Shown here: in pieces, positions 3,139 to 44,262 of the stretch
How positions within the stretch are numbered: position 1 is the first letter of the stretch
Layout: each line of letters begins with the position of its first letter
Assembly: GCA_040389185.1 (NCBI GenBank)
Contig: JAZKAJ010000007.1
Span: forward strand, 5,127-69,126
DNA: 64,000 bases
Reading direction: 5' to 3'
From: Patescibacteria group bacterium
GTDB taxonomy: Bacteria > Patescibacteriota > Minisyncoccia > Phycocordibacterales > CAIRYW01
Notes under the pieces: model-generated
Databases searched by the model: none
What the model saw: the letters and a program-made list of their open reading frames with translations, nothing else
Told to the model about the DNA's origin: nothing
Program-made: the position numbers and the translations under genes

Positions 3139-3178
3139 AACGCGCGGCACCTTTCGGGACCGCGCGTGTTTGATTTTG
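3139..3178 (+). terminator. thrS terminator hairpin (CGCGCGG...CCGCGCG) followed by a T-rich tract
   Basis: 7-bp GC stem 25 nt after the thrS stop, then TGTTTGATTTTG. Confidence 0.45.
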
Positions 3179-3716: not shown

Positions 3717-3747
3717 ATTAATATCATCCTACCTTTCTCCAATCCTA

Positions 3748-3790
3748 AAATCAAACAGCACCGCGGCGTAGCCGCGGTGCTGTTTTAAAT
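3748..3790. terminator. Family-1 conserved bidirectional terminator (T1a): A-run, CAGCACCGCGG-CGUAG-CCGCGGUGCUG, U-run
   Basis: GC-rich perfect hairpin flanked by AAAATCAAA and TTTTAAATTT. One of 5 near-identical copies in the window. Sits 38 nt past the sortase stop. Confidence 0.6.
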
Positions 3791-3827
3791 TTCCTCATTA
3801 ACTCACCCCTCACAACCCATCACTTTT

Positions 3828-4472: not shown

Positions 4473-4581
4473 ATATTTTCATTATATAAAGGATTTTTAA
4501 GGACGTCAATTAAGTACTTGACATTTACCTTTAAAAGATATATAATATACTCATAAATCTAAAAGATTAACAAATACATTT

Positions 4582-6045
4582 ATGTCTCAAGACCCACACA
4601 TTATTGTAGAAGACCATACAAACGATGCTCCAAAGAAGAGTAACTCTATTGTTCGTGGAGCAATTATAGTTGCAATTATCCTCGTACTCCTCTTTATCGC
4701 GCTTGCTATAGTTAAATTCGTACCAAAACTTATTTCTTCATTCGGTACTGCGAGTGTTTCTCTCTCTTCGCTCTTTAGCCCAAAAGAAAACATTACTGTA
4801 AGTGCTCCCTCTGAAGTGAAGAGTGGTTCGCCATTCACAGTAAGTTGGAAAAACAATGTGACTGAACCTGCAGGTTCACTTATGTGGAGCTACCAATGTG
4901 CTGACAATGTCACTGTTGAATATACTTCAACAGGAGGTCAGAGACCGGTTATTTGTAACACCCTCTTCCCCCTTCCAGCAACTGGCAACAGCTATTCTTT
5001 TGTTGCAAAAAACTCTGGTACAGCGAGTGTACCTGTCACAATGACAGTGGCACTCTATGATGCTGATATGAAAACTGTAAAGGTGCAAGGATCTACAAAT
5101 ATGACAGTACTCGCACCTGGAAGCACAGCAACTGTTGTCTCACAGTACAATCCTGATTACAGTGCCACAACAACACCAAGTACAAACAACAACTCAACAA
5201 ATACAAATACTAACGGAACAACAAAAACAACAACCAAGACAACTACGAACAATACTAATTACAATACAGGAGTTACAAATGGAACACCTGACTTAAGTGT
5301 GAGCCTCGTAAAGGTTGGACGAACACAGAACGACGGTTCATACATAAGTACAAATTCATTTGCAGAAAATGATCGAGTGACCGTGATATTTAAAGTAACA
5401 AATACCGGTACAGCTCGCTCTGGAACTTGGAGTCTCCGAGCAGATCTTCCTACAAAGACACAATCTGACAAAGTATATGTTTCTAACGCGCAGCCAGCAC
5501 TTAATCCTGGAGACTCATACCAGATGACAATCTCATTTGATGCCTTTGATCCAAACGGACGAAATATTATAATCACTATAAGCAACAACGACTACAACCA
5601 ATCAAACAATGTTTTGAATATTCCAGTCACTTCAAATGGTAACAATTCAAACAACGATAACAACAATAGCACCGGAAGTCGCCCAGATCTTACAGTCAGA
5701 ATCATTGATGTTGGAACAATGGGTAATAACAACCAGTTCTACTACTCAAACTCGCTTAATAGTAATGACAAGATCGCAGTAAAGTTTGAGATCCAGAACA
5801 TCGGCGGATCAAATTCTGGAAGCTTCCGATTCACTGCTGATCTCCCAACAAGTGACAACAATACATTCGAATCAAGTAATCAGTCATCACTTGCTCCGGG
5901 CGAAACAAGACAATACACACTTGGATTTGATAATCCAGACACCGGAACAAATACGATCACAATCGATGTCGACTCTGATAATGATATTCGAGAAAACAAT
6001 GAGAACAATAATGATGACTCGATGAGAGTTCGAATCAATAACTAA
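4582..6045 (+). CDS. membrane-anchored surface protein with Thr/Asn-rich linker and CARDB-like repeats
   Basis: N-terminal TM helix, an STN-rich low-complexity linker, and repeated PDL(S/T)V...VKVG segments typical of CARDB domains. No C-terminal LPXTG. Confidence 0.6.
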   Translation: MSQDPHIIVEDHTNDAPKKSNSIVRGAIIVAIILVLLFIALAIVKFVPKLISSFGTASVSLSSLFSPKENITVSAPSEVKSGSPFTVSWKNNVTEPAGSLMWSYQCADNVTVEYTSTGGQRPVICNTLFPLPATGNSYSFVAKNSGTASVPVTMTVALYDADMKTVKVQGSTNMTVLAPGSTATVVSQYNPDYSATTTPSTNNNSTNTNTNGTTKTTTKTTTNNTNYNTGVTNGTPDLSVSLVKVGRTQNDGSYISTNSFAENDRVTVIFKVTNTGTARSGTWSLRADLPTKTQSDKVYVSNAQPALNPGDSYQMTISFDAFDPNGRNIIITISNNDYNQSNNVLNIPVTSNGNNSNNDNNNSTGSRPDLTVRIIDVGTMGNNNQFYYSNSLNSNDKIAVKFEIQNIGGSNSGSFRFTADLPTSDNNTFESSNQSSLAPGETRQYTLGFDNPDTGTNTITIDVDSDNDIRENNENNNDDSMRVRINN

Positions 6046-6081
6046 CAGCAAGAGTGAAAAGTGATTAGGAATTAGTAAAAA

Positions 6082-6116
6082 GAAAAAGTGCCGCGGCTAC
6101 GCCGCGGTACTTTTTA
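6082..6116. terminator. Family-1 conserved bidirectional terminator (T1b): AGUGCCGCGG-CUAC-GCCGCGGUACU
   Basis: Hairpin with one G.U pair, flanked by A-run and T-run, between convergent genes (CARDB + / gyrB -). Confidence 0.6.
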
Positions 6117-6149
6117 ATTTACTTTCTACTTTTCACTAATTACTTGTTA

Positions 6150-8317
<2,168 letters not shown>

Positions 8318-8620: not shown

Positions 8621-8821
8621 ATGCCCTCAAGCGACAAACCTACACCACCCGAAATCCTGTCCTTCCGCGAAAAAATGAGAAGAAGAGACGCACTCCGCAA
8701 GAGAACACAAGGAGAATACCCCGACCACGAAGTCATTGCTGCCCTCTTGAGAGTAGTGCCGTTTCTTGGAGAAACTCTTCTCGACTTCTGGCGATCGATG
8801 CGGCGTCGTGTGGAAGCCTGA
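8621..8821 (+). CDS. hypothetical Arg/Pro-rich protein (66 aa) in a GC-rich (about 52%) patch
   Basis: ORF followed by a hairpin containing the palindrome GAGTGCATGCACTC and a T-run (8843-8885) on the plus strand. The patch composition is well above the window background. Confidence 0.3.
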   Translation: MPSSDKPTPPEILSFREKMRRRDALRKRTQGEYPDHEVIAALLRVVPFLGETLLDFWRSMRRRVEA

Positions 8822-8982
8822 CCGTTTCCGTTCTTTCATCACCAAACCGTTCCGAGTGCATGCACTCTGTTCGGTTTTTTATTTTCTTAAATATTTAAAT
8901 ATTGAAATACTTCAGCAGAAGCTTAACCCCTGAGGGTGAAATTTATCTCACTTCTCCGCTAAACTTTTGCTATCGCAAAACT

Positions 8983-10959
8983 TTAGCGGACAAGCCACTT
9001 ATTTTCCACAAGCGCACCGGTTATTCTCTCCATCACTTTATTTACCTCATCATCAGTAAGTGTCTTTTCATATGATTGAAACACGAGTCTGAATGCAAAA
9101 GAAGTTTTTTCTATTGCGCCCGTTTCTTTATTTGTCTTTTCAAACACATCAAAGAGTTCGTGACGAACCAAGAGATCTCCTACGTGAGTTTCTATCACAT
9201 GCCAGACTTTTCCTGCATTTGATTTGTCCCCTTCTACAAATACCGCAATATCTCGAACCATAAATGGATACGGAGAAGGTGCTTTATATTTCTTTACTTC
9301 TTTTGAAACAGGAATTTTGATTGATTCCTTTAGTTCAGGAAGACCTGCGATAAGGGCTTCAAAATCAACCTCCATTATTCCATCAAGATTATTTGTCATT
9401 CCGATTGATTTACCTCCTTTTGAAATAATCCCGCCACTATCATCCACCGTACACAGTATCTCAATTTTTGATCCTAAATGTTCGAAAAGTTCATCTCGTA
9501 CCACCTTGATCTCATCATTTGGTCTCTCGCCTTTCTTTGCTTTCTTATATGCAATACCGATACAAAGCGACAGAAATTCTCTCCCATCTTTCCACACTCG
9601 TCCAAATTCAAATACTTTGATCTTGTTTTGACCCAAAAGATCTGCATAATAAATATTATTTTTTAACTTCTCCTCCATTTGTGTTAAGAGATCTGTTCGG
9701 AGACTTTTCTTGTCTTCTGCAAGAGGATTCATTATTTCAACCTCTCCTTTTGGAGCCAATGTATATGACTGCACCTCACTAAATCCTCTTTCAATAAGGA
9801 AATTACGTACAATATTTCGATATGTAATATCATTGTTCAAAACAACTGGAATACTGATAACGGGAAGTGTTCCTTCAATATTCTCATACCCATAAAGCCT
9901 CCCAACCTCATCCACAATATCTTCTTTTATATTCAAATCCCTTCTTCCATCTGTTGGATATACCGCAATTAAAGCACCTTCTCGCCGTGCATTTATTGAT
10001 GCATTCTTTAGTAGCTCTATAATTGTTTCAGACGAAATTTCTTTTCCGAGCTTTTCACATATAAACTCAGGTGATACTTCAACCTTTTTTTCACTCTTTT
10101 TTGCAAGACCTGCAGACGAGATAGCGCTTACAGTAATCTCTGGATTTTCTTTTTTGAGTAATGAAACGAAATAGTTCAACGCTTCAATTGTGAGCATAGA
10201 GCTTACTCCATTTTCAAATCTCTTTGATGAATCAGTTTTGATATTGAGTTTTGTTGAAGTTTTACGTACGAGGCTTGCAACAAAATGTGCGGATTCAACA
10301 ATCACATGATCAGAATTATGAGTGGTCTCAGCTAGTTTGCCGCCTTTGATCCCAGCGATTGCAAGAGGATTTTTTTCATCTGCAATAACAACAATGCTCG
10401 AATCAAGCTTTACTTCTTTATTGTCCAAAGTGGTTATAGCTTCTCCCGTTCTTGCATATCGAACCACAATATCGCCCGATACCTTTTCTGCATCAAACAC
10501 ATGCATCGGCTGTCCAATATCAAGCATCACAAAGTTTGCAATATCTGCAAAGATATTGATAGATCGCTGTCCTACCGCTTCGAGCTTCTCTTTAAGCCAT
10601 AGAGGTGAATCAGCTTTTGTCACATTCATAATCCGGGTTGCATTATATGAATCACAAAAATCTCCCGCTTCGACAGAAACATTGACACCCATAACATCAT
10701 CAGCTTCGATTTCAGGAAGTATGCGAGGAATGAATTCATTGTCCGGAATGAGCGCCGCAAGCTCTTGTGCGACACCTTGATGTGAAAGACAGTATGATGC
10801 CCGATCTGGAAGCACTTTCACATCGAGGATATCATCGGTTGTTCTTTTCTCAATTCCCTCAACTTCAAAAATATGGAATGTCAAAAGCTCCGCAATCTTG
10901 TCGGACGACGGAAGAGGTTTCTTAAAATATGTCTGGAGCCACTTGTGTGAAATTTTCAT
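8983..10959 (-). CDS. pheT: phenylalanine--tRNA ligase beta subunit
   Basis: 658 aa. The N-terminus MKISHKWLQ... and domain order (B3/4, B5, catalytic-like, FDX-ACB) fit PheT. Confidence 0.88.
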   Translation of the reverse strand: MKISHKWLQTYFKKPLPSSDKIAELLTFHIFEVEGIEKRTTDDILDVKVLPDRASYCLSHQGVAQELAALIPDNEFIPRILPEIEADDVMGVNVSVEAGDFCDSYNATRIMNVTKADSPLWLKEKLEAVGQRSINIFADIANFVMLDIGQPMHVFDAEKVSGDIVVRYARTGEAITTLDNKEVKLDSSIVVIADEKNPLAIAGIKGGKLAETTHNSDHVIVESAHFVASLVRKTSTKLNIKTDSSKRFENGVSSMLTIEALNYFVSLLKKENPEITVSAISSAGLAKKSEKKVEVSPEFICEKLGKEISSETIIELLKNASINARREGALIAVYPTDGRRDLNIKEDIVDEVGRLYGYENIEGTLPVISIPVVLNNDITYRNIVRNFLIERGFSEVQSYTLAPKGEVEIMNPLAEDKKSLRTDLLTQMEEKLKNNIYYADLLGQNKIKVFEFGRVWKDGREFLSLCIGIAYKKAKKGERPNDEIKVVRDELFEHLGSKIEILCTVDDSGGIISKGGKSIGMTNNLDGIMEVDFEALIAGLPELKESIKIPVSKEVKKYKAPSPYPFMVRDIAVFVEGDKSNAGKVWHVIETHVGDLLVRHELFDVFEKTNKETGAIEKTSFAFRLVFQSYEKTLTDDEVNKVMERITGALVENKWLVR

Positions 10960-12348: not shown

Positions 12349-15300
12349 TCATTTTATTAATGAATTCAACACTTCCCTCGTCTTTGGTCCAAAGTATCCT
12401 ATAGCAGGAGTAATATTGTATGCTTTTTGAAATTTGATCAGAGCTGCTTTTGTTGCAGGACCAAAATATCTTGTCTCGAATCCAGAAGATCCAGGACCAG
12501 CTACGGCAATAGGAAAATTGTGTGTATTGAGGAAGATCTGGAGATATTTTATATCATCACTTCGTATAGTTCCGAATGGAATGTCTTTAGTGAAGGTAAA
12601 GCCGAGTGTGGTATTGATCGGGGAGGTTCGAACACTTGGAATATTCGGAATTTGAGAAATTGATTTTGAACACGCTTCTCCTGTAAGAATACTGAAATTA
12701 AATCCTTGAAAACATCCTGGAATAGTGGGTTCTGTAGTACGACAAGGAAGACCGGTATTTGTATCAAATCTCTCTCCTCCCAAACAAGTGGGAAGATGAG
12801 GAGGAGTATTATTATTAATTTGAGTTCTTGAAATAGAACTTGCTGAACCACTTGTATTTCTAGTTCCCTCTTGTTCCGGCGCTTGATCTGTTGACTCAGA
12901 TGTAATAGCGAAAGAAGTGAGAGGAAGCGGAGTACTTGTGTTACCAGCATTATCAGTCACAGCAATCGTGCAGTTCAAATATGTTCCGACTGTGAGTGTA
13001 GAGAGAGTGATTGTATTAGAACCTGAAGATACACTTGTCGTCACACTACTACAAGATCCACCATATGTAATTGTACCGGCTTCAGTTGTTGAAAAAGTGT
13101 AGTTTGGGCTAGTGTTTGTTCCAGAAGTGACCGGTGTGATCTCTGCCAGTGACGGTAAAGTAGTGTCGATTGTTATTGAGAGTGCAGGTGATGCACCACT
13201 TTCATTACCCACAGAATCTACTTCAGTGTATGTGATACTATGCACTCCAGGATCTAAGGCAGTACTTGTAATTGTAAAATTATCTGAATTGCATCCGATA
13301 TAATTATTAAATATCCTATCAACATATAGATTCACTTGAATATCAGTACATGTGCCAGTAAATGTTGGTGATGTGTCGTTCGTTACATTATCCGTCGATG
13401 ATGCGCCCGTATCACTTGAAGAATCCAGGTCTGGTGCAGAAGAAGGTGTAGAAGGTGGAGTAGTGTCTACAGTCGCGGTAGTGGTCGCAACATCTGAAAA
13501 GTTACCGATGGTATCATAGGCAAATATTGAGTAGTGATACGTCCCATCAGGTACATTTGCAAGATCCCAAGATGTTCCACTAAGTCCTGTAACTACCGCT
13601 CCACCACTATTTGGATCAGTTACATATCCTACAGTAGTACCAAATACACTTACAGTTGAAAAATCAGAATCTATTGGATTAATCCACGAAAGATGAACAT
13701 TACCTCCTGATGGATTGGCAGTGAAGCTTGTCGACGCACTAGGCGCTGTAGTATCAATAACAATATCATTATTTGCACCAAGACTTCCCGTGGTACCTGG
13801 ATCAGGCAAAGTGAGGTTTGCGTCTATAGATGAAGAGGTACTTTTAATGCTTCCACTGTTTAAATCGAGCGCGGCGTTTGTTGCATAATCAAGGTCAGTC
13901 GAGTTGTCTCCATCTTGTACAGTATATGCAAACACCAAGGTGTCACTGCCAGAGCCTGAAGCATAAGTCGCAACAGCATCTGTTGTATCACTTGTCTCCA
14001 GAGTAAGATGCGGTGTACCCATGACTGTAACCGCCTCTGAAAAATGAACCTGTATTTCTACATTACCACTACTTGCAAACGCTCCTGAATTTGTAGAATC
14101 CACAGAAGTGACAGTTGGAGCTTGTGCCGCATACTGAAAAGTACCTCCGTTTGTCTCCACAAAAGTAGTATTGGAATCGTATGTTGCACCCGATACATCC
14201 ACAACAACACCAGGACCATCAGCAACCACAGTCCACGGATAAGGATCTTGTGTGAAATCTCTTACTGTAGTTATACTAGAAGTATATCTACGAGTAAGTG
14301 GGCCTTCTATAGAACCGCTAATATATGCACTTAAATCACCGTTAAATATAGCACTCGAGTTAAGAGTGCCTCCCCGATTCTGACTTGAATCGTTGAATGT
14401 AGCATCACCGGCTATAGTCCCATTATTGTATGAAGAATCATTAAAGACAGCATACGTTGTAATCATGCCCTCATTATGGGCACTATTATTGAAGGTAGTC
14501 GTAGCAAGCTCTCCACCATTGTACGTAATCCCACCATTACTATTTATATAGCCCCTGTTGAATGTTGCCCCATTCATAGCTTGAATATTTATATCTATAT
14601 ATCTATCATCTAGAGATGGTGAAAAGGTAAAAGTGTTTACTGTCGGAACACCGATTGATGATGTCCATATACCGTCTACAGCAATCACATCATCGGTAGA
14701 ATCTGGCGTGGCAGTAGTAGGTATGATAAAGGAAGAATCAATTCTCCAATTTCCCACATTACCCCAATCATTATTATTGATTGAATTGAAATATTTTCTT
14801 GTACTATTTACAGTCCCGGACGTACCCGCTACACCAGCAGTACCAGTCTGACCAGTTGAACCTACTAAACCGGTTTGCCCATTTGATCCAGAAGCGCCAG
14901 CGGAACCGTCTGCGCCGTTCGTACCGTTGCTACCATTTACACTTCCACAACCATTTTCATCACACCCTGGACTCGAACCACTTCCCCCACTTCCGCCAGA
15001 GCCACCAGAACCAGGACTTCCCGCAACCGCAGTGCCCCCGCCACCTGGCAGACCAGCAACACCGGCTGAACCAGCGGTGCCTGCTGAATATACTATGCTT
15101 CCGAATTGACTCAAGCTATCAATCGATACATTGCCCCCATTACCTCCATTACCTCCATTACCAGCATCACCTCCATTACCTCCATTACCAGCAGTACCAC
15201 CATTACCAGCGTCACCACCAGGACCACCAAGTCCGCCATTGCCACCATCTGTTCCGTTACAATTACAAGAAGGTACATCCGCACTACCACCAGGACCACC

Positions 15301-16134
15301 ATTTCCACCGGTACCTCCGTTACCTCCATTTGCACTCCCCCCATAACCACCACGGCCACCATTGCCGCCATTTGCACCATTACCACCATCTACAGAAATT
15401 ACAGCAAGGGAATGTATATTTGCATTAATTAAAACTATGTGGCCTCCATTGCCCCCATTACCACCATTTGCACCAGCAGATCCAGCTGTACCGTCCCCAG
15501 GACTTCCACCACCTGTACCGGCAGTACCAGCACTTCCACCACCCCCAGCATAAGCAGTAGGACCTCCTGCTCCCGGATCACCATCTATACCTCGATCCCC
15601 GTTTGTACCGTTAGCATCGCTGGTATTTGAACCATCATTGCCACTAGCCCCAGCATATCCATTTCCACCATTTGATTGTAGCTTGTCGTACACCGTCGAA
15701 GTCGCAATCGTGATATCCCCACCATTAGAACCGTCGGGTGAGCCAGCATCACCATTTGCACCATTTGCTGTAAGTCCGCCATGTACAATTGCATTTTGTA
15801 CTCTAAAACTGTAAGCATTATTTCCAGCAAAGCCGCCATTTGCAGAAATACCATCGGGACCACTAATTTGATGGCCTGCACCATCGATTATTACCCCATC
15901 AGATTGAATAGTAATACAAACTCCCGAAGAAGTTATAATATCTTGGGTCAATGTATATGTACCTGGATCAGTAATAGTCTGACAACTAGATATTTCAGTT
16001 GTTAACGGCACCGCCCGGGTCGTTTTTGGAAATAAAAAAACTCCTCCAACAGAAAAAAGAGTAATCGTAAAAATCATGAGAGGTGAAACAAAGCTATATA
16101 CTCGCTTTAACGTTCGTGATTTATAGATGGACAT
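12349..16134 (-). CDS. giant secreted surface protein (1261 aa): beta-helix-like N-terminal region, Gly/Asn-rich repeats with a collagen-like G-X-Y run, Ig-like/Thr-Ser-rich repeats, C-terminal peptidoglycan-binding domain
   Basis: N-terminal signal/[10 protein letters not shown]-type low complexity. A strict triplet run [36 protein letters not shown]-terminal ...[33 protein letters not shown] matches the PG_binding_1 signature. Overlapping alternative-frame ORFs are low-complexity artefacts. Confidence 0.8.
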
Positions 16135-16252
16135 AAGAAATATTATAACTCAAAAAACTTCATTCCGAAACAATAATATAAAAAAATAAACATTTATTTG
16201 CACAAATTCTTCGTGTAACATTCTGTACATAGACCCTTTAAAAAATCCAGAA

Positions 16253-17500
16253 ATGATGTATAATGCTTGGATGCAAACTATTGTGAGCACCCTTGGCACG
16301 ACTGTCATTTTCTTCTCCCTCTATTTTGAGGTGTTTCTTTTGATTTCCCTTTTTGAATCAAAAAAGAAACGAAAAGAGCTCTCAACACTTGAGTATTACT
16401 TTCCACCTGTCACAATTCTGATTCCTATCTGGAATGAAGAAAGTACAATTGTTGATACAGTCGAATCTCTTCTTAATCTCGATTACCCAAAGGACAAACT
16501 TCACATTATGGTCATAGATGATGGAAGTACCGACCGGTCACTTGAAGCCCTTCAAAAATTTAAAGGTCATCCAATCGTTGAGGTCTACTCAAAACCAAAT
16601 GGCGGTAAGTACACAGCACTCAATTTTGGAATTGAAAAAATGAAGACTGATTTCGTCGGATGTCTTGATGCTGACTCATTCGTTGATAAGAATGCACTTA
16701 AAAATATTATGAGACGATTTACGGATCCAGAAGTAATGGCTGTCACCCCTTCAATGATCATTGAAAAGCCATCAAACATCCTCCGCAAAATGCAGAGAGC
16801 AGAATACAGTTACGGCAACTTTATGCGAAAAGCATACGGATCTATTGGCGCAATACATATCACTCCAGGACCATTCTCTTTCTTCCGAAAAGAGGTATTT
16901 CAAAAAATAGGAATGTACAAACACGCACATAATACAGAAGACATGGAGATGGCTATGCGAATGCAAAAGAATCATATGATGATTGTAAACGAACCTGGAG
17001 CCCTCGTGTTTACAGTGGGCCCAGATACAATCAAAAAACTCTACAAACAGCGCGTGAGATGGGTGAGCGGTTTTCTCGGAAACCTCATTGACTACAGGGC
17101 AATGCTTCTCAACAAAAAGCACGGAGACCTCGGACTTATCGTACTTCCCTTTGCAGCATTTCAGATTATAATAACCTTTATCCTTATTGGAATATCTATA
17201 CATAAAACAGGGATGCAAGTATACAAATATATCTACCAGCTAATGACGGTTGGTTTTTCTGCCCCGATATTCGATTTTGGCTGGTTTTTTGTCGATACAA
17301 GTGTATTATCAATATTGACGGTCACCTTGTTCCTTTTTATCATAAGCCTCATTATGTATGGATACAAGACAGTGTATGGTAAATGGCGAATATCTATTGA
17401 AATGTTCTACTTTGTATTTTTATATTCATTTATAGCTCCTTTTTGGCTTATAAAATCGGTATATAATAATATCAAAGGTGTACATGCGCCATGGAGATAA
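16253..17500 (+). CDS. family 2 glycosyltransferase, membrane-embedded processive type (PgaC/IcaA/CesA-like)
   Basis: DxD region (VIDDGSTD), catalytic D (LDADS), QRVRW (QxxRW) motif and multiple C-terminal TM helices. Confidence 0.8.
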   Translation: MMYNAWMQTIVSTLGTTVIFFSLYFEVFLLISLFESKKKRKELSTLEYYFPPVTILIPIWNEESTIVDTVESLLNLDYPKDKLHIMVIDDGSTDRSLEALQKFKGHPIVEVYSKPNGGKYTALNFGIEKMKTDFVGCLDADSFVDKNALKNIMRRFTDPEVMAVTPSMIIEKPSNILRKMQRAEYSYGNFMRKAYGSIGAIHITPGPFSFFRKEVFQKIGMYKHAHNTEDMEMAMRMQKNHMMIVNEPGALVFTVGPDTIKKLYKQRVRWVSGFLGNLIDYRAMLLNKKHGDLGLIVLPFAAFQIIITFILIGISIHKTGMQVYKYIYQLMTVGFSAPIFDFGWFFVDTSVLSILTVTLFLFIISLIMYGYKTVYGKWRISIEMFYFVFLYSFIAPFWLIKSVYNNIKGVHAPWR

Positions 17501-17553
17501 GAAACAGTTTATAGTCATTAGTTTATAGTTGATAGAAATTAAATAAAAATACA

Positions 17554-18255
17554 ATGGAAAACAAGAAACAAATAGATTGGAAAAAATACGTCATTACCTT
17601 TTTTATAACTGCGACAATATTCGGGACTGCAATATATGCAAGCAATTTTTTCAATAACAAAAGAATAGACGAGATCAAATCAATCCAGGAATCAATCTCT
17701 ACAAACATCATGTCTTCTGAGACTCAGGTATCCCTCCTTTCAGACTTGGATTGTCAGGATGTTGGCAGCTCAATGCTTTCAACTGAGCTCAATTCTCTTG
17801 CCTCTCGAATCGAATATAGTGAGAAAAATATAAACAACGCCGATGAAGAGGTGCAGCAACTCAAAAAAGCATATTCACTTCTTGAGATCAAAGACTATCT
17901 TCTCATGAAACGACTCTCAACTCGATGTAACAAACAATTCGTCTTTGCTCTCTATTTCTACGCAGATAGCGCTAAATGCCCTGACTGTGATAAGGCAAGT
18001 ACGATACTCACTTACCTTCGAGAAAAATATCCAGAGCTTCGAGTATATTCATTTGATTACAACCTCGACCTTTCTGCACTCAAAACCCTCATTACTATCT
18101 CAAAGATCAAAGATAACCTACCAGCGATCGTAATAGATGGTAAAGCAATAGAATGGCCACAGGATAAGGATAGTTTAGAAAAGATTATCAAAGCCAAGTA
18201 TCCAAAGGATGCGAAGGTAGCGACGACGACTAGTAGTACAAGTACGAAGAAGTAA
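17554..18255 (+). CDS. membrane-anchored protein with coiled-coil and a CPDC (CxxC) thioredoxin-fold-like C-terminal domain
   Basis: N-terminal TM helix. ...FALYFYADSAKCPDCDKAST... resembles a thioredoxin-like active-site context. Assignment is weak. Confidence 0.4.
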   Translation: MENKKQIDWKKYVITFFITATIFGTAIYASNFFNNKRIDEIKSIQESISTNIMSSETQVSLLSDLDCQDVGSSMLSTELNSLASRIEYSEKNINNADEEVQQLKKAYSLLEIKDYLLMKRLSTRCNKQFVFALYFYADSAKCPDCDKASTILTYLREKYPELRVYSFDYNLDLSALKTLITISKIKDNLPAIVIDGKAIEWPQDKDSLEKIIKAKYPKDAKVATTTSSTSTKK

Positions 18256-18265
18256 TTAGCTTAAA

Positions 18266-18895
18266 ATGAAATTACTTCTCACCTCAAAAGAAAAGTTTTT
18301 AATTACAAAAGGATACGATCTACTTGGCATTCCGAAAGATAAACTAAAGATTGGGTATATCACCACAGCCCTGAAAGTTGTTGCTGATACTGAATATCTC
18401 AACTATATGAAAGAATATGAAATCGAAATGAGAAAGAATAATATTTCTTTTGAGGAATTCGATATTGAAGGCAAAAATGAAGAAGAGATACGGGAGTTTT
18501 TTAAAGATAAAAATGTCATTCAAGTCTCTGGAGGAAATCCTTTTTATTTATTAAAGAGTATTAGAGAAAGTGGGTTTGATAAAGTCTTAAAGGATCTATT
18601 GAACGAAGGTCTGATATATGTTGGCAGTAGTGCAGGTTCTTATATAATGTGTCCAACCATTGAAGTTGCTGCATGGAAGGTAGGTAGAAATAATTATGGT
18701 CTCAATGATCTTACGGCACTTGCATATGTACCCTTTCTGCTCAAATGCCATTATACAGATAGTGCAAAAGATACTATTTTAGAAAAGGTAAAGGATCTAA
18801 AATATTCACTTAAAATTTTGCGAGATGATCAGGCTTTTTTGGTTGAAGACGGTAATGTTATGTTTATTGGGGACGGAGAGGAAGTAAAAATATAA
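18266..18895 (+). CDS. peptidase S51 (dipeptidase E / cyanophycinase-like) family protein
   Basis: The segment IQVSGGNPFYLL...VGSSAGSYIMCP contains the S51 Ser nucleophile context. Confidence 0.5.
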   Translation: MKLLLTSKEKFLITKGYDLLGIPKDKLKIGYITTALKVVADTEYLNYMKEYEIEMRKNNISFEEFDIEGKNEEEIREFFKDKNVIQVSGGNPFYLLKSIRESGFDKVLKDLLNEGLIYVGSSAGSYIMCPTIEVAAWKVGRNNYGLNDLTALAYVPFLLKCHYTDSAKDTILEKVKDLKYSLKILRDDQAFLVEDGNVMFIGDGEEVKI

Positions 18896-37333: not shown

Positions 37334-37406
37334 GCCGTCGTAGCTCAGTTGGTAGAGCATGTTCTTGGTATGAACAAGGTCATCGGTTCGATCCCGATCG
37401 ACGGCT
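37334..37406 (+). tRNA. tRNA-Thr (anticodon GGU), CCA not encoded
   Basis: GCCGUCG-UA-GCUC-AGUUGGUA-GAGC-A-UGUUC-UUGGUAU-GAACA-AGGUC-AUCGG-UUCGAUC-CCGAU-CGACGGC-U. Confidence 0.85.
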
Positions 37407-37573: not shown

Positions 37574-38011
37574 TTATGCAGAGAAACTTACCTTATCGTC
37601 CGCATCAAGATAATCAAAAAGAGTTGTCGTTTTAGGATCAAGAGCCAATCTCTCACACTCACCTTGAAACCATTCTTTTTTATTTGGATCAGTCGAATAT
37701 GAAAAATCAGTCTTAAACGCGCTAGACCATTTACTTACTTCATCTGGAGTCTTTGTATCTCCATGAGTCTCTACCCATTTACCAATTTCTTCATCACTTG
37801 CCCCTGTTGCAACAAATGCCTTGAATTCTTCTGCATTAATATTTTTAAATCCAAAAAGAGTTTTGTCGAGTGGGCAATCAAAGTGATATTCTCCGGCAGT
37901 ATCATTTATAACAGCGCGGCATTTATCGATTGTTCTCGCCAAAATTGCAAATCCATTTATCGTTTCATAAGGACTTCGTGGCGCCTCAACAGCCAAATCT
38001 TTTGCTTCCAT
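37574..38011 (-). CDS. hypothetical protein (145 aa), last gene of the PEP-utilizer paralog operon
   Basis: ORF only. No recognisable motif. Confidence 0.45.
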   Translation of the reverse strand: MEAKDLAVEAPRSPYETINGFAILARTIDKCRAVINDTAGEYHFDCPLDKTLFGFKNINAEEFKAFVATGASDEEIGKWVETHGDTKTPDEVSKWSSAFKTDFSYSTDPNKKEWFQGECERLALDPKTTTLFDYLDADDKVSFSA

Positions 38012-38049
38012 ATATTTTCAGTATTTAATTAATAGAACCCTATTATACC

Positions 38050-39036
38050 CTAAGCCCGTTTCAAAATCCTTACTATACCTTTCTCAGCATCAACCTCTAC
38101 TAAATCTCCATCTTTCAAGATTTTCGTCGCGATTTTGGTACCTATAACACAAGGTTTTTTAAGTTCACGAGCCACTATTGCTGCATGACAAGTAATGCCG
38201 CCTTCATCAGTTACAATCGCTGAACATTTCTTTATTGCAATCATCATATCGGGCGTAGTCATTGGAGAGACAAGTATCTGACCTGCTTTGATCTTGTTTG
38301 AGTTTGCAATACTTTTAAGAATAAATACCTCTCCTTGAACTTTACCAAGAAAAGCAGATCGACCTTTTATGATTTGAGCGTTGGTTTTTAAGACTTCAAA
38401 TTTATAAGGCAAATCATCATATTTTCCTCTAAAATTCTTGCTGCTCAAAACAACAAAACCCCTTTTTCTTTTCATCAACACTTCTTTAGAAGGAATTTTA
38501 CTTACTTCTTTTTGCAAAACCGTATCTTCAAAACCTTTTGTTTGCGGATGCAAATATATGAGTGAGTTCCTTAAAAATTTTGCTGTCTTTGACCAGAATT
38601 CATCAGTCTTTCTAAATTCAGTTGCAATGCCAACCAACTTCTTTGGACTTTTCCTATTAAGAAGAGTGAAGTAATAAAGAATATATCTTTCAACTTGTTT
38701 ATTGAGTTTTTTAATAAATTCTTCTAATTCCTGAGACGAATTAACATGTTTTTTCTTCCAAAATTTTTCATAATAAGGCAACTCTTTCATGTATGCATCA
38801 AGATTTTTATTGAAAAAATTGCCACTATTCTTATTTTTATAGAGAATGAGCAAAGAAAGTTCTTCTTCCAACTTCTTGTGTTGCAATACTTCAATAGTTC
38901 CTTCGGTCAAAAAATCAATTACCATCGGGTATGCAGGTTTCTGTCCTTTTAACTTTTTATACAGTGATTCAAATCCAAAGATCCATGCTTGCTGAATAAT
39001 AAGTCCAGTGTCTCTTGTATACGCTTTATAGTACAT
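38050..39036 (-). CDS. PEP-utilizing-enzyme mobile (phospho-histidine swivel) domain protein, paralog C (no ATP-grasp domain)
   Basis: The C-terminus ...SAIVTDEGGITCHAAIVARELKKPCVIGTKIATKILKDGDLVEVDAEKGIVRIL carries the catalytic His in the GG(I/L)T(C/S)H motif. The N-terminal part is helical and Lys-rich, with weak similarity to the middle region of paralog A. Confidence 0.7.
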   Translation of the reverse strand: MYYKAYTRDTGLIIQQAWIFGFESLYKKLKGQKPAYPMVIDFLTEGTIEVLQHKKLEEELSLLILYKNKNSGNFFNKNLDAYMKELPYYEKFWKKKHVNSSQELEEFIKKLNKQVERYILYYFTLLNRKSPKKLVGIATEFRKTDEFWSKTAKFLRNSLIYLHPQTKGFEDTVLQKEVSKIPSKEVLMKRKRGFVVLSSKNFRGKYDDLPYKFEVLKTNAQIIKGRSAFLGKVQGEVFILKSIANSNKIKAGQILVSPMTTPDMMIAIKKCSAIVTDEGGITCHAAIVARELKKPCVIGTKIATKILKDGDLVEVDAEKGIVRILKRA

Positions 39037-39038
39037 AA

Positions 39039-40598
39039 CTATTGATTTTTCAGAATCTTGACTACTCCTTTATCTGCATCTAATTCCACAAGATCCCCAT
39101 CTTTCAAATACTGAGTAATATTTTTCACACCAACAATACACGGAGTTTTAAATTCTCGCGCCACAATTACTGGGTGAGATGTGAGTCCTCCAAACTCCGC
39201 GATAATACCAGATGCTTTTCTAAGATAAATATCAAACACGTTACTTGCCGAAGCGACAACCAAAATATCTCCTTTTTTAACTTTAGATGCGCCCTCTAAA
39301 CTTGTACCTATCACAACTTTGCCAGTTATTTTACCAACACTTCCTGTCGCACCTTCAAATATATCTTTGTTAGTTTTTTCAACTTCTAATTGCGTTTGAA
39401 TTGTATCTTTTATCTTTTGAGCATCCTTGCCAACAAATACATATTCCTTATTATCGATAGTCATAAAACAGCTAAGTTTTAATCTTTCTTTCAGATCTTT
39501 TTCTTTTACTTTTTTATTTTCCTTCAAATAATCTGCAATCTCCCATGGTAAGAACTCTTTAAGTTCATAATAAGTAAGACCTAATCTTTTAGCAATTTCA
39601 GTATAGAGCGGAATGATGTAATAAGCAGACTCACCCATCACCGGATAATCTTCTGTACGTAAGAACGCCATCCGACGAAGACTCATAATCAAATTCTTCA
39701 CTTCTTTTGAAGGACCAATTTCTTCCAAAAAAACCTTAGAACGTTCAATGAGCGAAACATCATAATCATCACCAAGTCTTTTTGCCTTTACTGTCAAAGG
39801 AGTATCATTCTTAATGTAATCAATAACCTCATTCCAAATACTCAGAACTGTCGATGGGGGATTATTTGCATACACATTAATCCATACATAACCCTTAAAA
39901 TGTTTATCAATGAGTTTTTTTATTTCTTTATTTTCTTTTATCACCCCATCGTATGAAATACCTTTTTGAACCACCTCTAAAAGAGCCTTATTATCTCTTA
40001 CCAGTTTTACAATATTAAAAAAACTCTGTCTCTCTTTATAGATAATTGATACCTGATGTGGAGTAATAAGTGTATTAATATATTCAGTGACGAGTTCTGC
40101 TTTACCAAGTTCTCCCAGTCTCCTTTTCATATAAGATTCTAAAACTGGCATGAGTGCGATTTCCATATACCAATCATAAATATCTACCGTTAAGTTATAG
40201 ATTAAGTGTCTACCGACTTTGTTAAGAAGTTCTATAAGTTTCTTATTACTTAACTTATCTAGATTTTTAATTGCCCAAATTTTTCTTAATTCTTTCAAAT
40301 CAAAGTTAACCCTCTTTCGGTAATCTTTGACTACATCAATCATAAATCCTGGTTCAACTTCAAATCTATTTCGATAAAACTGATCAAGTCGATCACGATC
40401 TTCAACTGCCTGATAGCAAGTCTGAATCCCGTTTTCAAATAGATTAATTATAACTCGGAGACTATCTCCGGAAATACGTGTATGCTCCTTCTGGAATTTT
40501 AACCCTTTATCATAAGCACAATCGAGAAGTGGAAAATTGCCCGACCACGTGTACATCCAAGTGTAATCATTAATTCTTTTGATAAGTTTTTGATTCAT
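39039..40598 (-). CDS. PEP-utilizing-enzyme mobile domain protein, paralog B (substrate-domain-like region + His domain, no ATP-grasp)
   Basis: C-terminal ...GGLTSHPVIVAREFKTPCIVGVKNITQYLKDGDLVELDADKGVVKIL. Segments similar to the middle domain of paralog A (LSNKKLIELLNKVGR..., EIAKRLG...). The start is set at the internal ATG (40598) to avoid a 38-nt overlap with paralog A; the longest ORF runs to 40643. Confidence 0.68.
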   Translation of the reverse strand: MNQKLIKRINDYTWMYTWSGNFPLLDCAYDKGLKFQKEHTRISGDSLRVIINLFENGIQTCYQAVEDRDRLDQFYRNRFEVEPGFMIDVVKDYRKRVNFDLKELRKIWAIKNLDKLSNKKLIELLNKVGRHLIYNLTVDIYDWYMEIALMPVLESYMKRRLGELGKAELVTEYINTLITPHQVSIIYKERQSFFNIVKLVRDNKALLEVVQKGISYDGVIKENKEIKKLIDKHFKGYVWINVYANNPPSTVLSIWNEVIDYIKNDTPLTVKAKRLGDDYDVSLIERSKVFLEEIGPSKEVKNLIMSLRRMAFLRTEDYPVMGESAYYIIPLYTEIAKRLGLTYYELKEFLPWEIADYLKENKKVKEKDLKERLKLSCFMTIDNKEYVFVGKDAQKIKDTIQTQLEVEKTNKDIFEGATGSVGKITGKVVIGTSLEGASKVKKGDILVVASASNVFDIYLRKASGIIAEFGGLTSHPVIVAREFKTPCIVGVKNITQYLKDGDLVELDADKGVVKILKNQ

Positions 40599-40605
40599 AG
40601 AAGCT

Positions 40606-43038
40606 TTATAATTTAATAATTTTGACAACACCTCTATCTGCATTCACTTCTACAAGATCATTATCTTTAAAATTTAACATCGCGTTCTTTAATCCAATAA
40701 CACAAGGAATTCCAAACTCTCTGGACACAACCGCCGCATGGCATGTTATACCTCCAACTTCTGTTACTATAGCTGAGGCAAGTTTCATTGCAGGCAAATA
40801 ATCCACGGTTGTTGCATATGTGATAAGGACATCACCCTGCTTTACTTTATTGATCTCTTGAGGTGTTTTACATATTTTCACACGACCTTTTGCAGTACCA
40901 GGTGAACCACACTTTCCACTCGAATCCTCATCACCTTGAATCCAAGATTTTCGAGCATCAAAATCTTCAAGAATTCTCACAGCTTCATCATTACCAAACT
41001 TTTTTCTTTTCATTTCTCCAAGAAATCCCACAGCAGTAAAATCTGTTCTTTCTTTTAGAACATCTTTTATGTTTGTTTTACCTTCTAAACATTCAGATAT
41101 TTCATCAACAAACAGTAACGAAACCTTACCAACATTACTCTTTAATCTACGCGCGATCTCAGGAACAATGTTAATTAAATGTTCTCCAGCAAAACTCACA
41201 AAATACTCAGCTTCATTTCTTGTATCAAGTGCAAGTCCAAAATCCACAAATCTTTGAGTTTCGGATGGATTTAACTTCAAATTCTTTTTTGCTTCAAAAA
41301 AATCTTGTTGTTGTTTTTTTGTATAGTCTTTGAGTTCATTAATTACTTTCCTTATCTCATCTAAAGGTAGTTTTATAGCCTGCACCAACTCTTTCTCGTA
41401 ATGTTTACCTTGCCATGGATCACCGTAACTAAATATAGGCATAAAACCAAATTGTGTGGCAAGCAAATTTGAATTCTTCTCAAGCATTGCGGGCTTTGAT
41501 TTACAAACTAGTGCAGATTTATATACCGCCAATTTCTCCTTCAATGTTGTTGAAATGTGTTTTGGTTTTGTAAGCTTAAACAAAAACTCATTGAATTTCT
41601 CTGACCCCTCTTCAAGTCCTTTTGATTTTAGAATAGTATAAATTCCTGCCGTTAAAGCATTTTCACTAAGCCATCCAAATTGATCATAGACCGTGATTTC
41701 CCCTACTAGCTTTCTATTTTTCTTAAATACTTCAATTAATTTTTTATTTGAAAGTAACTCAAGATTTTTACTCTTCATCTCTGAAACTTCTTTTTTTGCT
41801 TTTTCAACTTCTATGTAGAATTTTGACAATTCTTTCCCAATTTTTTTAGGTGTTTTTTTATATAGATCCGCTATCCGAAGATCGAGTTTTTGAAAGAAAT
41901 CTTTGGAATAAAAAGGCAACTGATATAAAGGATTAATTTTATGGATAATAATAGTATCTCTTTCCAATCCAAATTTATCTTTAAACTTTTTTTGGGTCGT
42001 TTCATTATTCCAACACTCTGTTGCTAGAGGCGACAAGGACCATTGACCCATTTGAATCACTCCGTTTGGAAAATAGGTAACTTTTTTATTTGTAGACTGA
42101 AGAGTAGTAATAGGTCTCGACTGTACAATATAAAACTTTTTATTCTCATATGCCCACTCAATGTCACACGGAAATCCGTAATGACTCTCAATTTTAATAA
42201 TAACATTAGAGAGCTCCAAGATCTCTTTTCCAGATAAGCATTGTTCGTTCGCTTTTTTATTTTCAATCTCTTCCCACTCATTTGTGCCGGTTTTTGATTT
42301 AAATAAGCCTCGAGATTTCTCAGCGATATTCGTATCTAAAATTGCTTTTGGTTTTTTGGTTACTACATATGAATCTGGAGTCACTTGCCCTGACACAATA
42401 GCCTCACCGAGTCCCCACGATCCTTCAATAATCATTTGATTGTGATCTTCGGTCACTGGATGCACCGAAAATGCGATACCACTTTTCTCGCTCTGAACCA
42501 TTTTCTGTATTACAACTGCAACAGATATATGAGTATTGTGTAATCCTTTTTCAAATCGATAGAATATCGCCCGAGGAGTAAAGAGTGAGGCAAAACATCT
42601 CTGAACATTTTTAATCACATTCTCTTTTTTAGTATTCAAAAAACTATCGAGCTGTCCTGCCCACGCATGCTCAGCGCCATCTTCAGCGGTCGCACTACTT
42701 CGCACAGCCACCCACCGTGCATCCAAAGTTTTGTAGGCATCCATGATTTCTTTCTCGAGATTTTTCGGCATCGAAGCCTCTTCAATAATATCCCGAATAA
42801 TCTCTGACGCCCGCTCTACAGATTCCATCTCTTTATGATTTACTTTTTTGAGTGTCGCTTCAATTTCTGAAATAATATCTGTTTCTCGAATAAAATATTC
42901 AAATGCATCTGAAAGTACTACAAATCCAGGAGGCACGGGTATGCCCACATTGGTCATTTCTCCCAAGGATGCGCCTTTTCCACCTGCGATATTCGCATCG
43001 TGGCGATTGAGTTCCTCAAAGACTTTAATCATTTTCAT
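40606..43038 (-). CDS. rifampin-phosphotransferase / PEP-synthase-like enzyme, paralog A: N-terminal PPDK_N ATP-grasp nucleotide-binding domain + middle domain + C-terminal phospho-histidine swivel domain
   Basis: N-terminal IAGGKGASLGEMTNVGIPVPPGFVV...VAVRSSATAEDGAEHAWAGQ is the PPDK_N-type signature. C-terminal ...GGITCHAAVVSREFGIPCVIGLKNA. Domain order (ATP-grasp, middle, His) matches RPH-family enzymes rather than PpsA. Confidence 0.72.
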   Translation of the reverse strand: MKMIKVFEELNRHDANIAGGKGASLGEMTNVGIPVPPGFVVLSDAFEYFIRETDIISEIEATLKKVNHKEMESVERASEIIRDIIEEASMPKNLEKEIMDAYKTLDARWVAVRSSATAEDGAEHAWAGQLDSFLNTKKENVIKNVQRCFASLFTPRAIFYRFEKGLHNTHISVAVVIQKMVQSEKSGIAFSVHPVTEDHNQMIIEGSWGLGEAIVSGQVTPDSYVVTKKPKAILDTNIAEKSRGLFKSKTGTNEWEEIENKKANEQCLSGKEILELSNVIIKIESHYGFPCDIEWAYENKKFYIVQSRPITTLQSTNKKVTYFPNGVIQMGQWSLSPLATECWNNETTQKKFKDKFGLERDTIIIHKINPLYQLPFYSKDFFQKLDLRIADLYKKTPKKIGKELSKFYIEVEKAKKEVSEMKSKNLELLSNKKLIEVFKKNRKLVGEITVYDQFGWLSENALTAGIYTILKSKGLEEGSEKFNEFLFKLTKPKHISTTLKEKLAVYKSALVCKSKPAMLEKNSNLLATQFGFMPIFSYGDPWQGKHYEKELVQAIKLPLDEIRKVINELKDYTKKQQQDFFEAKKNLKLNPSETQRFVDFGLALDTRNEAEYFVSFAGEHLINIVPEIARRLKSNVGKVSLLFVDEISECLEGKTNIKDVLKERTDFTAVGFLGEMKRKKFGNDEAVRILEDFDARKSWIQGDEDSSGKCGSPGTAKGRVKICKTPQEINKVKQGDVLITYATTVDYLPAMKLASAIVTEVGGITCHAAVVSREFGIPCVIGLKNAMLNFKDNDLVEVNADRGVVKIIKL

Positions 43039-43184
43039 GAAAGAAATTATGCTACAAAATCCCTAATAAATCAATATAATGCAACATATTTTAAGATATT
43101 GTAGTCATTGACAAATGGCAATAATATGTGATATAATATAAAGATGTTCCTTAACAAGTCAGACCCGAATTCTTCGGCCGCTTT

Positions 43185-43817
43185 TTGGAGCTCCCTCAAC
43201 CACCACACCCCACACCTATTGTTATGATCGGATCCTTCAAACTCTCTGCTCAACGGCACACCAAAGCCGACAAGCATCCGCTGGGCGACATGTTCCGCCG
43301 ACTCACCACATCCGGCATTGGTCTCAGACAGCACCACAAAGTGCAGGACCTGCTCAAGCCACTTAAGTTTGATCAGGTGTTTTACACCAAGACCGTTCGG
43401 ACAGTCACCTTGGCCAGAGCCTTACTCCACGCAAACTATCCCAAGGAAATCATTCAGATGGTCAATTATGCTTATCCCGAGCCTGATGCCCACGCCGAGA
43501 TTTGGACAATGTTCGAGGAAGCAAAAGGCAAAGGTAACGCTCCCAACGACTATCGTGACCATCGCCACTTCGGACTCCTGCTTCAGTACTGCAAAGATGC
43601 GGCCAAAAAACTGCTCGAAGCATGCCAGGGAAAAAGTACACTACTCATTGGCCATGTGCCGATGAACCAGTTCATCCTGGCGGAGATCGCAATTCTACTG
43701 GGTCAACACGGCGTCGCTCGCGAACTTATGAAGACCCGTTTGGAGCTCGGCGACCGTCTGGATGTCGTTTGGGACGGTAAAAACCTCACACCCAACATCG
43801 TTCGCCTGGCACTTTGA
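43185..43817 (+). CDS. hypothetical protein in a GC-rich (about 52%) island; weak histidine-phosphatase (SixA/PGM-like) resemblance
   Basis: The longest ORF begins at TTG 43185; the first ATG is at 43224 (MIGSFKLSAQRHTKAD...). RH...R.LTTSG and LIGHVP are reminiscent of histidine-phosphatase motifs, but RHG is replaced by RHT. Composition is far from the window background. Confidence 0.4.
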   Translation: MELPQPPHPTPIVMIGSFKLSAQRHTKADKHPLGDMFRRLTTSGIGLRQHHKVQDLLKPLKFDQVFYTKTVRTVTLARALLHANYPKEIIQMVNYAYPEPDAHAEIWTMFEEAKGKGNAPNDYRDHRHFGLLLQYCKDAAKKLLEACQGKSTLLIGHVPMNQFILAEIAILLGQHGVARELMKTRLELGDRLDVVWDGKNLTPNIVRLAL

Positions 43818-43844
43818 TACCTCGACATCTGACTTGAATACCAC

Positions 43845-43877
43845 GAAGCCGGCTCTGCATGCAGAGCCGGCATTTTA
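43845..43877 (+). terminator. Rho-independent terminator GCCGGCUCUGCAUGCAGAGCCGGC + UUUU
   Basis: Perfect 10-bp palindromic stem and T-run 30 nt after the stop at 43817. Confidence 0.55.
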
Positions 43878-43893
43878 ATACTCAAAATTTTCT

Positions 43894-44262
43894 TTAAAAA
43901 CTCATTCCTCCCCCATGTCTTTGGACATCCATATTTTTCATTCTAATATCACTATCTATAGTTCTTGATTCTGATTCGAGTGTACGGAGCTGTGCTTCTG
44001 TATTTCGTATCAAACTGAGTGTTGAAGAATCTTTTTTTCCCGCCTGAAGATGAAGCAAATCCCTTTTTACCTGTTGTATTTCATTCTGAACTTTTAAGTG
44101 ATCAAGTTTTCGGCGAGAGATTTCTTGTTTTGTTCTATCAACTTCTCGCGTTTGAAGCGTATTGTCATACGCCTTCTTTTCCTGCATCATTCGCCCACGA
44201 GCATTATTAAAAGCGCTCGCTCCAGCACTTGTAACCTTTTTGTACATATCTCCTAACGACAT
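43894..44262 (-). CDS. hypothetical coiled-coil protein (122 aa)
   Basis: ORF with a heptad-like charged repeat pattern. Confidence 0.35.
   Translation of the reverse strand: MSLGDMYKKVTSAGASAFNNARGRMMQEKKAYDNTLQTREVDRTKQEISRRKLDHLKVQNEIQQVKRDLLHLQAGKKDSSTLSLIRNTEAQLRTLESESRTIDSDIRMKNMDVQRHGGGMSF

Follow-up and report, generated by a model that had tools for sequence, protein, structure and literature searches.

Rifampin phosphotransferase (RPH), whose mechanism has been described (PMC4844700) and whose structures are available (PDB 5fbs and 5hv1), is one self-contained polypeptide without satellite swivel proteins. In the two-component dikinases, the ATP-grasp subunit HpeI charges HpeH, a protein made of RIF-binding-like and swivel domains, and CreHI and PpsAB work likewise (PMC12167813). 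HpeHI belongs to Rhodococcus, CreHI to Corynebacterium, and the phenylphosphate synthase PpsAB to Thauera and Aromatoleum (PMC12167813). We analysed a 64,000-nt stretch of contig JAZKAJ010000007.1 (assembly GCA_040389185.1) from a Patescibacteria group bacterium, hereafter the window, which carries an operon of three swivel-domain genes (A, B and C) divergent from a GC-rich gene (Table 1). We propose, with a probability of roughly 0.55, that the locus codes for a small-molecule dikinase of the RPH/HpeHI type that is partly split and of one-to-many design. The parts and their chemistry are known from RPH and the HpeHI-type dikinases. We found no description of the layout of one engine and many acceptors, its expansion to at least 10 genes, the resident SixA-like phosphatase or the turnover of the cassettes.

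The locus was compared with HpeHI, CreHI and PpsAB. As in these systems, an RPH-like substrate domain appears to be joined to a swivel His domain, both in B and in the proteins of related contigs that correspond to the middle and His domains of A (A-middle-His), and the ATP-grasp is encoded adjacent to them. The free ATP-grasp of about 314 aa found in two related contigs (L006 and L009) resembles HpeI, CreI and PpsB. Unlike the one-to-one pairing of the described systems, one ATP-grasp is encoded here together with several different swivel proteins, from 3 to at least 10 of them, and in the window it is fused to one of them, A. Further differences are that B matches PRK08296-type models in the swivel region only, that the arrays include SixA-like phosphatase genes, and that the hosts are Patescibacteria rather than aromatic degraders, with no carboxylase or aromatic-catabolism genes nearby.

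The three consecutive minus-strand genes each end in a Pfam PEP-utilizers domain, and PPDK_N, the ATP-grasp, was found in A and not in B or C; both points had been made in the initial annotation. The GGxT(C/S)H motif with its catalytic histidine proved intact in all three proteins (EVGGITCH in A, EFGGLTSH in B and DEGGITCH in C). The spacing between A and B is 7 nt and that between B and C 2 nt. No other open reading frame (ORF) with a PPDK_N or PEP-utilizers domain was found within the 64-kb window, and A is the sole ATP-grasp protein there.

The ATP-grasp and swivel domains of A are homologous to those of phosphoenolpyruvate (PEP) synthase (PpsA) and pyruvate phosphate dikinase (PPDK), which share the GGxT(S/C)H motif. 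Unlike these enzymes, A contains no PEP-utilizers_C domain, the PEP/pyruvate TIM barrel, in the Pfam search, and its swivel domain is C-terminal rather than central. The Pfam coordinates give the order ATP-grasp, middle, swivel His, which is that of RPH and agrees with the earlier description of A. Because the TIM barrel is absent and the swivel domain is C-terminal, A is not a PEP synthase or PPDK. The likeness to RPH does not extend to the sequence of the middle domain, for which no RPH match was obtained in PDB and NCBIfam searches; the NCBIfam rifamycin phosphotransferase models NF041857 and NF000283 scored 342.6 bits (equivalog cut-off 999) and 238.3 bits (cut-off 1700) against A, aligning with the ATP-grasp and swivel parts only. 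A and B share 29% identity over 419 aa spanning the middle and His domains, an alignment which indicates that the middle domain of A and the N-domain of B are homologous.

We considered whether B is a genuine gene. Its PEP-utilizers domain lies at residues 456-526 (E 2.6e-20) in the numbering of a longer, 534-aa ORF from 40643; the N-termini of the orthologues favour the ATG start at 40598. A search with the non-swivel part of B retrieved about 11 proteins among 5.8 billion, nearly all of them 500-520 aa long with a C-terminal swivel domain. These relatives are 38-55% identical, and those named at NCBI are all from Patescibacteria. The motifs WSGNWPLLD, KRLGDNYD and LRTEDYxVMSESSY are strongly conserved among them. 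A metagenome scan with the B profile found nothing, a genome scan found one locus, and no relatives of B were found in viral contigs. From these alignments, B is best described as a member of a conserved stand-alone Patescibacteria family of about 520 aa under purifying selection. Because B has its own complete His domain and conserved family motifs, it is not a fragment of a frameshifted gene, an explanation that the initial annotation had wished to see checked.

The AlphaFold2 model of B was of good quality (predicted local distance difference test, pLDDT, 86; pTM 0.82). Its top Foldseek match in the PDB was RPH (5fbu; E 2.8e-13, TMq 0.50, about 590 columns), whereas PPDK, pyruvate kinase and Enzyme I aligned in the swivel domain only (TMq below 0.2). 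Once the region beyond the swivel domain is counted, RPH is thus the closest of the solved structures, and the predicted fold of B is RPH-like beyond the swivel domain.

Related contigs were surveyed for the organisation of these genes. The survey comprised the contigs carrying B orthologues and, in addition, the loci with phosphatase relatives (L012, L013 and L014). The number of swivel genes per related contig ranged from 2 to at least 10 (Table 1). A-middle-His is a separate gene in L006, L007, L004, L008 and L010, and the ATP-grasp is a separate gene in L006 and L009, where it is followed by four and at least two swivel genes, respectively. Given that the ATP-grasp is free in L006 and L009, the swivel proteins there must be charged in trans, if they are charged at all, and A in the window would represent a fusion of the engine. 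The suggestion of the initial annotation that the His domains of B and C could be charged in trans therefore gains strong comparative support from the free 314-aa ATP-grasps heading these arrays.

A-middle-His and B orthologues are adjacent or one gene apart in seven of the eight lineages with B. The remaining paralogs fall into several N-domain groups that are unrelated or barely related to one another, and the catalytic His motif is retained in nearly all array paralogs. Short paralogs of 346-362 aa recur as groups; L6_354, L7_351, L5_g2_351 and L13_358, for example, share 22-31% identity over their full length. L013, a syntenic relative, was compared with the window. The flanking genes of the window and L013 are 66-90% identical and A is 77.5% identical (its L013 orthologue has 835 aa). 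Between A and the DUF5069 gene at the end of the operon, the window carries B and the C/D gene described below, and L013 carries non-orthologous proteins of 358, 280 and 447 aa. Alignment of these internal paralogs survives only at their His-domain ends.

Gene C differs from B in its N-terminal part. The PEP-utilizers domain of C is at residues 250-320 (Pfam, E 1e-25), and C aligns with A and B in its last 100-120 residues only. The N-terminal 215 aa had no Pfam or PHROGs match, no relation to the B family by hhalign, and no homologue outside this strain cluster. It had been claimed that B and C both keep parts of the middle region of A. This stands for B, given its 29% identity to A over 419 aa, and fails for C, whose similarity is confined to the His-domain end.

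A near-identical contig, L002 (GCA_040384165.1), has, besides A and B, a C gene (327 aa) and a fourth swivel gene, D (306 aa). The D protein has yet another N-domain, with no relation to the B family by hhalign and no relative found, and its tail is that of C in the window. By blastn, window positions 44837-38086 correspond to L002 1-6752 (99.76%) and window positions 38187-37617 to L002 7565-8135 (99.3%). The two alignments overlap by about 102 nt within His-domain coding sequence, so that the window lacks a 914-bp segment, which contains the N-domain of D, and its C protein has the C-terminal tail of D. The C gene of the window is a chimera in which paralog C has been fused, by a 914-bp deletion, to the C-terminal tail of a lost fourth paralog, D. 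The same chimeric gene is present in an independent Logan assembly (L001). C and D are uninterrupted ORFs with perfect catalytic motifs. Judging from these alignments, the copy number of swivel genes differs between strains through recombination across repeated His-domain sequences.

The gene divergent from A was examined next to the array. The initial annotation had described a GC-rich island encoding a 210-aa protein reminiscent of SixA-type phosphatases. The GC content of 0.52 at 43200-43800 was confirmed; the window as a whole has 0.384, and A, B and C have 0.33-0.36. The GC at third codon positions (GC3) of the gene is 0.61, compared with 0.26-0.29 in A, B and C, and the frame shows coding-like periodicity (GC1/2/3 of 0.61/0.35/0.61). 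A structured RNA in the island was rejected, with no Rfam match at the gathering score or at E up to 10, and with the coding periodicity. The 210-aa ORF exists, from a TTG at 43185, but the start conserved with relatives is the ATG at 43224, which gives a protein of 197 aa.

Direct searches of Pfam, NCBIfam, the PDB and PHROGs with the GC-rich protein gave nothing significant. A word-indexed homologue search retrieved only the protein itself and P0013, a 205-aa protein of L004 with 26% full-length identity that shares R11-H12, R25 and H144; its gene is flanked in L004 by the orthologues of A-middle-His and B and is read from the opposite strand. When a profile of these two proteins was run exhaustively against 1.84 billion proteins, eight more were obtained at E up to 1e-3, of which seven look like relatives and P0019 is spurious. 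Three of the relatives, P0021, P0020 and P0018, pass the His_Phos_1 gathering score in Pfam (42.6, 39.3 and 27.1 bits, respectively). In the nine-sequence alignment, R11, H12, R25 and H144 are invariant, and R59 is present in eight of nine, the ninth being misaligned but having the residue. The nine-sequence profile placed SixA-type structures at the top of its PDB matches (4hbz, E 2.3e-11, followed by 2rfl and 3f2i; 1ujb at 6e-8), and hhalign related the family to E. coli SixA with 96% probability (E 4.5e-9, 118 columns). Through these intermediates to His_Phos_1 and the alignment to SixA, the resemblance noted at the outset holds, and the protein is assigned as SixA-like at the level of the histidine phosphatase superfamily.

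The R-H...R...R...H residues and the overall spacing of the SixA-type proteins (PDB 1ujb, 4hbz and 2rfl) are kept. Unlike them, the GC-rich protein is about 40 residues longer, with an insertion containing YP(E/D)P...W.MF...(A/T)P..(Y/F)..H, and the Gly of RHG is replaced, by T in the window protein and by F, P, A or S in relatives. Its gene is also set apart from the SixA-type genes by being GC-rich and fast-diverging.

Five further lineages (L004, L008, L012, L013 and L014) have relatives of the SixA-like gene next to an array and on the opposite strand. The 227-aa homologue of L013, the syntenic relative, is divergent from the A orthologue, as is the 199-aa homologue of L012. L008 encodes, divergently from B, a protein with an RH...GH pattern, and in L014, P0021 is encoded on the opposite strand inside the array. 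The association of the phosphatase with the arrays is conserved across these contigs. The opposite-strand phosphatase gene is GC-rich in all six lineages (GC3 of 0.54-0.675 compared with 0.27-0.45 in neighbouring array genes). The phosphatases of the window and L013 are 34% identical, although the DNA similarity reaches both edges of the ORF. Repeated replacement, selection for rare codons, or accelerated evolution of a strongly transcribed opposite-strand gene are ideas that might account for a GC-rich, fast-diverging gene at a conserved position with a conserved promoter.

Table 1. Features of the window and swivel-gene arrays of related contigs.
Contig	Feature	Coordinates	Strand	Description
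Window	Gene A	40606..43038	-	810 aa; PPDK_N ATP-grasp, RPH-like middle, swivel His domain
Window	Gene A domains			PPDK_N, residues 16-319 (Pfam, E 4.7e-102); middle, residues ~330-700; PEP-utilizers, residues 733-803 (Pfam, E 2.4e-22)
Window	Gene B	39039..40598	-	519 aa; predicted RPH-like substrate-domain fold and swivel His domain; no ATP-grasp
Window	Gene C	38050..39036	-	328 aa; orphan 215-aa N-domain and swivel His domain
Window	Recombination junction	38086..38187	.	~102 nt that align with His-domain coding sequence of C and also of D in L002
Window	DUF5069 gene	37574..38011	-	145 aa; closes the operon; Pfam PF16798, E 4.2e-34
Window	SixA-like gene	43224..43817	+	197 aa; GC-rich, divergent from A; R11-H12, R25, R59, H144
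Window	Promoter	43108..43137	+	Sigma-70-type TTGACA, 18 nt, TG-n-TATAAT; 12/12 match, extended -10
Window	Leader	43144..43223	+	~80 nt; hairpin 43165-43177, U-run, C-rich tract before ATG; no Shine-Dalgarno
Window	Terminator	43848..43871	+	Strong; follows the SixA-like gene; GC-rich hairpin, 10-bp stem with 8 GC pairs, then ATTTT; between two convergent genes
L004	Opposite-strand SixA-like gene	7257-7874
L013	Opposite-strand SixA-like gene	8628-9311
L012	Opposite-strand SixA-like gene	1797-2396
L008	Opposite-strand SixA-like gene	2095-2727
L014	Opposite-strand SixA-like gene	10001-10627
L005	Array			At least 10 consecutive swivel genes, 346-519 aa
L006	Array			PPDK_N as a free protein (314 aa), followed by four swivel proteins: 354, 494, 503 (B) and 470+ aa (orthologue of A middle-plus-His)
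L009	Array			Free 314-aa PPDK_N, 73.6% identical to A residues 1-314, then split A-middle-His, then B
L007	Array			Five swivel genes; upstream, three methyltransferase paralogs and a PLP enzyme
L004, L008, L010	Array			Two to at least three swivel genes
L014 (Candidatus Paceibacterota)	Array			At least six swivel genes; also ABC exporter, permease, methyltransferase, M20 peptidases

We propose the following working scheme for the one-to-many dikinase. The ATP-grasp would bind ATP and phosphorylate the swivel His, yielding AMP and Pi. A would be charged this way in cis, and B, C and the D of sister strains in trans. Each charged swivel domain would then swing back to its own N-domain and pass the phosphate to the ligand bound there, so that one ATP engine could serve several acceptor-specific modules. 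The SixA-like protein would most likely hydrolyse phospho-His on swivel domains with uncharged substrate, acting as a reset or brake; less likely, it would remove phosphate from the products. The conserved His-domain coding sequence could serve as a recombination substrate for the gain, loss and shuffling of cassettes, and the C/D chimera of the window would be one such event.

Several points weigh against this scheme. We infer every chemical step from how enzymes of this family are known to work, and the same goes for charging in trans in this bacterium, which in the window would have to be carried out by a fused ATP-grasp. The N-domain of B has no sequence match to the NCBIfam models of HpeH/PpsA type outside the swivel region. 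The PRK08296.1-x models, which we take to be the nearest library family for the H/PpsA-type subunit, matched B at residues 405-532 (the swivel region) only, with 79.5 bits compared with a 578-bit cut-off. Pfam searches on the N-domains of ten other paralogs found nothing, and many paralogs of about 350 aa are without a recognisable fold or family. For the N-domains of C, of D and of these short paralogs, the term substrate-binding domain is accordingly an assumption. Not every array may have its own engine, with no PPDK_N seen in the 15-20 kb examined of L004, L007 and L014. As for the phosphatase, the direct His_Phos_1 (PF00300) score of the window protein was sub-threshold (12.6 bits, E 0.11, compared with the 21.7-bit gathering score), and its AlphaFold2 model, built from a two-sequence alignment, was unusable (pLDDT 39.4).

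The best NCBIfam and PDB sequence matches of A are PEP synthases (PpsA model PRK06464, 459.6 bits; PDB 8a8e, E 4.8e-96), from which one might suppose that A is the PEP synthase or PPDK of the cell and that B and C are irrelevant fragments. We regard this as very improbable. The PpsA matches cover the ATP-grasp and swivel domains at the two ends only and stay below the cut-offs (598 bits for PRK06464; 445.9 bits compared with 739.75 for a second model), residues 330-700 of A are homologous to the RPH-like domain of B, and the domain architecture, with a C-terminal swivel domain and no PEP-utilizers_C TIM barrel, excludes a plain PEP synthase. The conserved neighbourhood of A-middle-His and B in seven of eight lineages raises a different alternative, in which A, B and possibly C are subunits of one heteromeric enzyme or pathway acting on one substrate or on successive intermediates, with A-middle-His and B as an obligate pair and the other paralogs as accessories. 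The tight gene spacing suggests co-translation, and heterodimers of paralogs are conceivable, since HpeH homodimers have been reported (PMC12167813). Such an enzyme is possible but unlikely. Every paralog retains its own complete catalytic His domain, and an array size varying from 2 to at least 10, with turnover of content among close relatives, would be unusual for a fixed complex.

The orphan N-domains of C and D and the chimeric nature of C in the window could also mean that B is functional and that C and D are copies in decay, produced by tandem duplication and unequal recombination, the window array then consisting of one or two real enzymes and debris. Given that the ORFs of C and D are unbroken with perfect motifs, that conserved groups of paralogs of 346-362 aa are found again in other arrays, and that being an orphan says little in a phylum sampled so sparsely, we consider decay improbable. 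A comparably doubtful proposal is that the swivel proteins form a regulatory or protein-directed phosphorelay, like Enzyme I-HPr of the phosphotransferase system, with the SixA-like enzyme as the relay phosphatase; we think it quite improbable. SixA of E. coli acts on phosphorelay proteins (HPt domains and NPr), among solved structures the phosphatase family is closest to SixA-type phosphohistidine phosphatases, and the swivel domains match the N-terminal domains of Enzyme I. The non-swivel part of B, however, resembles the small-molecule-binding domain of RPH and not the HPr-binding subdomain of Enzyme I, and the annotated array genes included no HPr-, EIIA- or receiver-type partner. The histidine phosphatase superfamily also includes many small-molecule phosphatases, with CobC ranking fourth and sixth in the PDB search.

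We return to the one-to-many dikinase, which if true would make the shared engine a new organisational principle for the PEP-synthase/PPDK/RPH dikinase superfamily and enlarge the two-component dikinase subfamily, which was recognised in 2025. Such a system would also hint at new phosphorylated metabolites, or else at inactivation of antibiotics, among bacteria that cannot be grown alone. Patescibacteria genomes are very small, about 1 Mb, and some lineages nevertheless devote 6 to more than 14 kb to the arrays. Such genes receive the automated name 'PEP-utilizing enzyme', and metabolic reconstructions that count A as a gluconeogenic PpsA would be wrong. Full-text literature searches gave nothing on swivel-protein arrays in Patescibacteria or the CPR, and nothing on DUF5069. 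As a speculation that we hold unlikely on present evidence, the arrays may be a recombination-driven chemical-defence or scavenging kit of ultra-small symbionts. One engine would then serve interchangeable cassettes that phosphorylate different foreign small molecules, such as an antibiotic or a host metabolite, with the His-domain sequence as the swap handle and the fast-evolving phosphatase, kept GC-rich through rare codons, as the brake. No meaningful PADLOC anti-phage matches were obtained, and PHROGs gave none for the four locus proteins or domains scanned.

The expression signals of the SixA-like gene were also inspected. The -35 and -10 elements are conserved in L013 and L012, as is the leader of about 80 nt in the DNA alignment with both contigs. 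The leader hairpin shows one apparent compensatory change in L013, and its folding energy is not significant (z of -0.5 and -1.4). A 27-codon ORF at 43144-43227 was considered as a frameshifted N-terminus and rejected, given that, when aligned with L013 and L012, the conserved start is ATG 43224 and the stretch is conserved leader. A GC-rich, fast-diverging SixA-like gene with a conserved consensus promoter is a separate puzzle.

Other observations were made in the related arrays. In L009, the A-middle-His orthologue (2262-3712) is split into overlapping ORFs of 223 and 266 aa by a frameshift, which may reflect a real pseudogene or an assembly error of the metagenome-assembled genome. In L004, a 409-aa gene (4263-5492, plus strand) lies 10 nt upstream of the A-middle-His orthologue. 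It was considered as a replacement engine and rejected, being a cyanophycin-synthetase/RimK-type ATP-grasp ligase (PDB 7ta5, E 2.8e-36) and not PPDK_N. The array of L007 is flanked by three paralogous methyltransferases and a PLP-dependent enzyme (736-5202). That of L014 is accompanied, at 4754-6553 and 13849-18616, by two M20 peptidases, an OTCase-like gene, an ABC exporter, a xanthine/uracil-type permease and a methyltransferase; of the two M20 genes, the one on the plus strand (13849-15060) is likewise GC-rich (0.53).

A second array-resident family, on the same strand as the swivel genes and of normal GC, was found in L013 (4149-4991, minus strand, 280 aa), L007 (9040-9999, plus strand, 319 aa) and L014 (6621-7541, minus strand, 306 aa). 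Its members have histidine-phosphatase-like motifs: RHGE in L013, or RHEE or RHND, then R..QTA/SAHTA, then G(T/S/G)H. The proteins L14_306 and L7_319 are 29% identical (E 5e-30), and the family is not recognised by Pfam.

The 145-aa protein that had been noted as closing the operon was confirmed in this position and identified by Pfam as DUF5069. Its PDB match is 3omd, an 'uncharacterized protein' (E 2.5e-17). The gene occupies the same position in L013, with 88% identity, and is absent from the more distant arrays. Just past this end of the operon, a tRNA-Thr(GGU) lies at window positions 37334-37406. L013 has the same tRNA-Thr (98.6% identical), inverted with respect to the neighbouring genes and separated from DUF5069 by a 197-aa gene.

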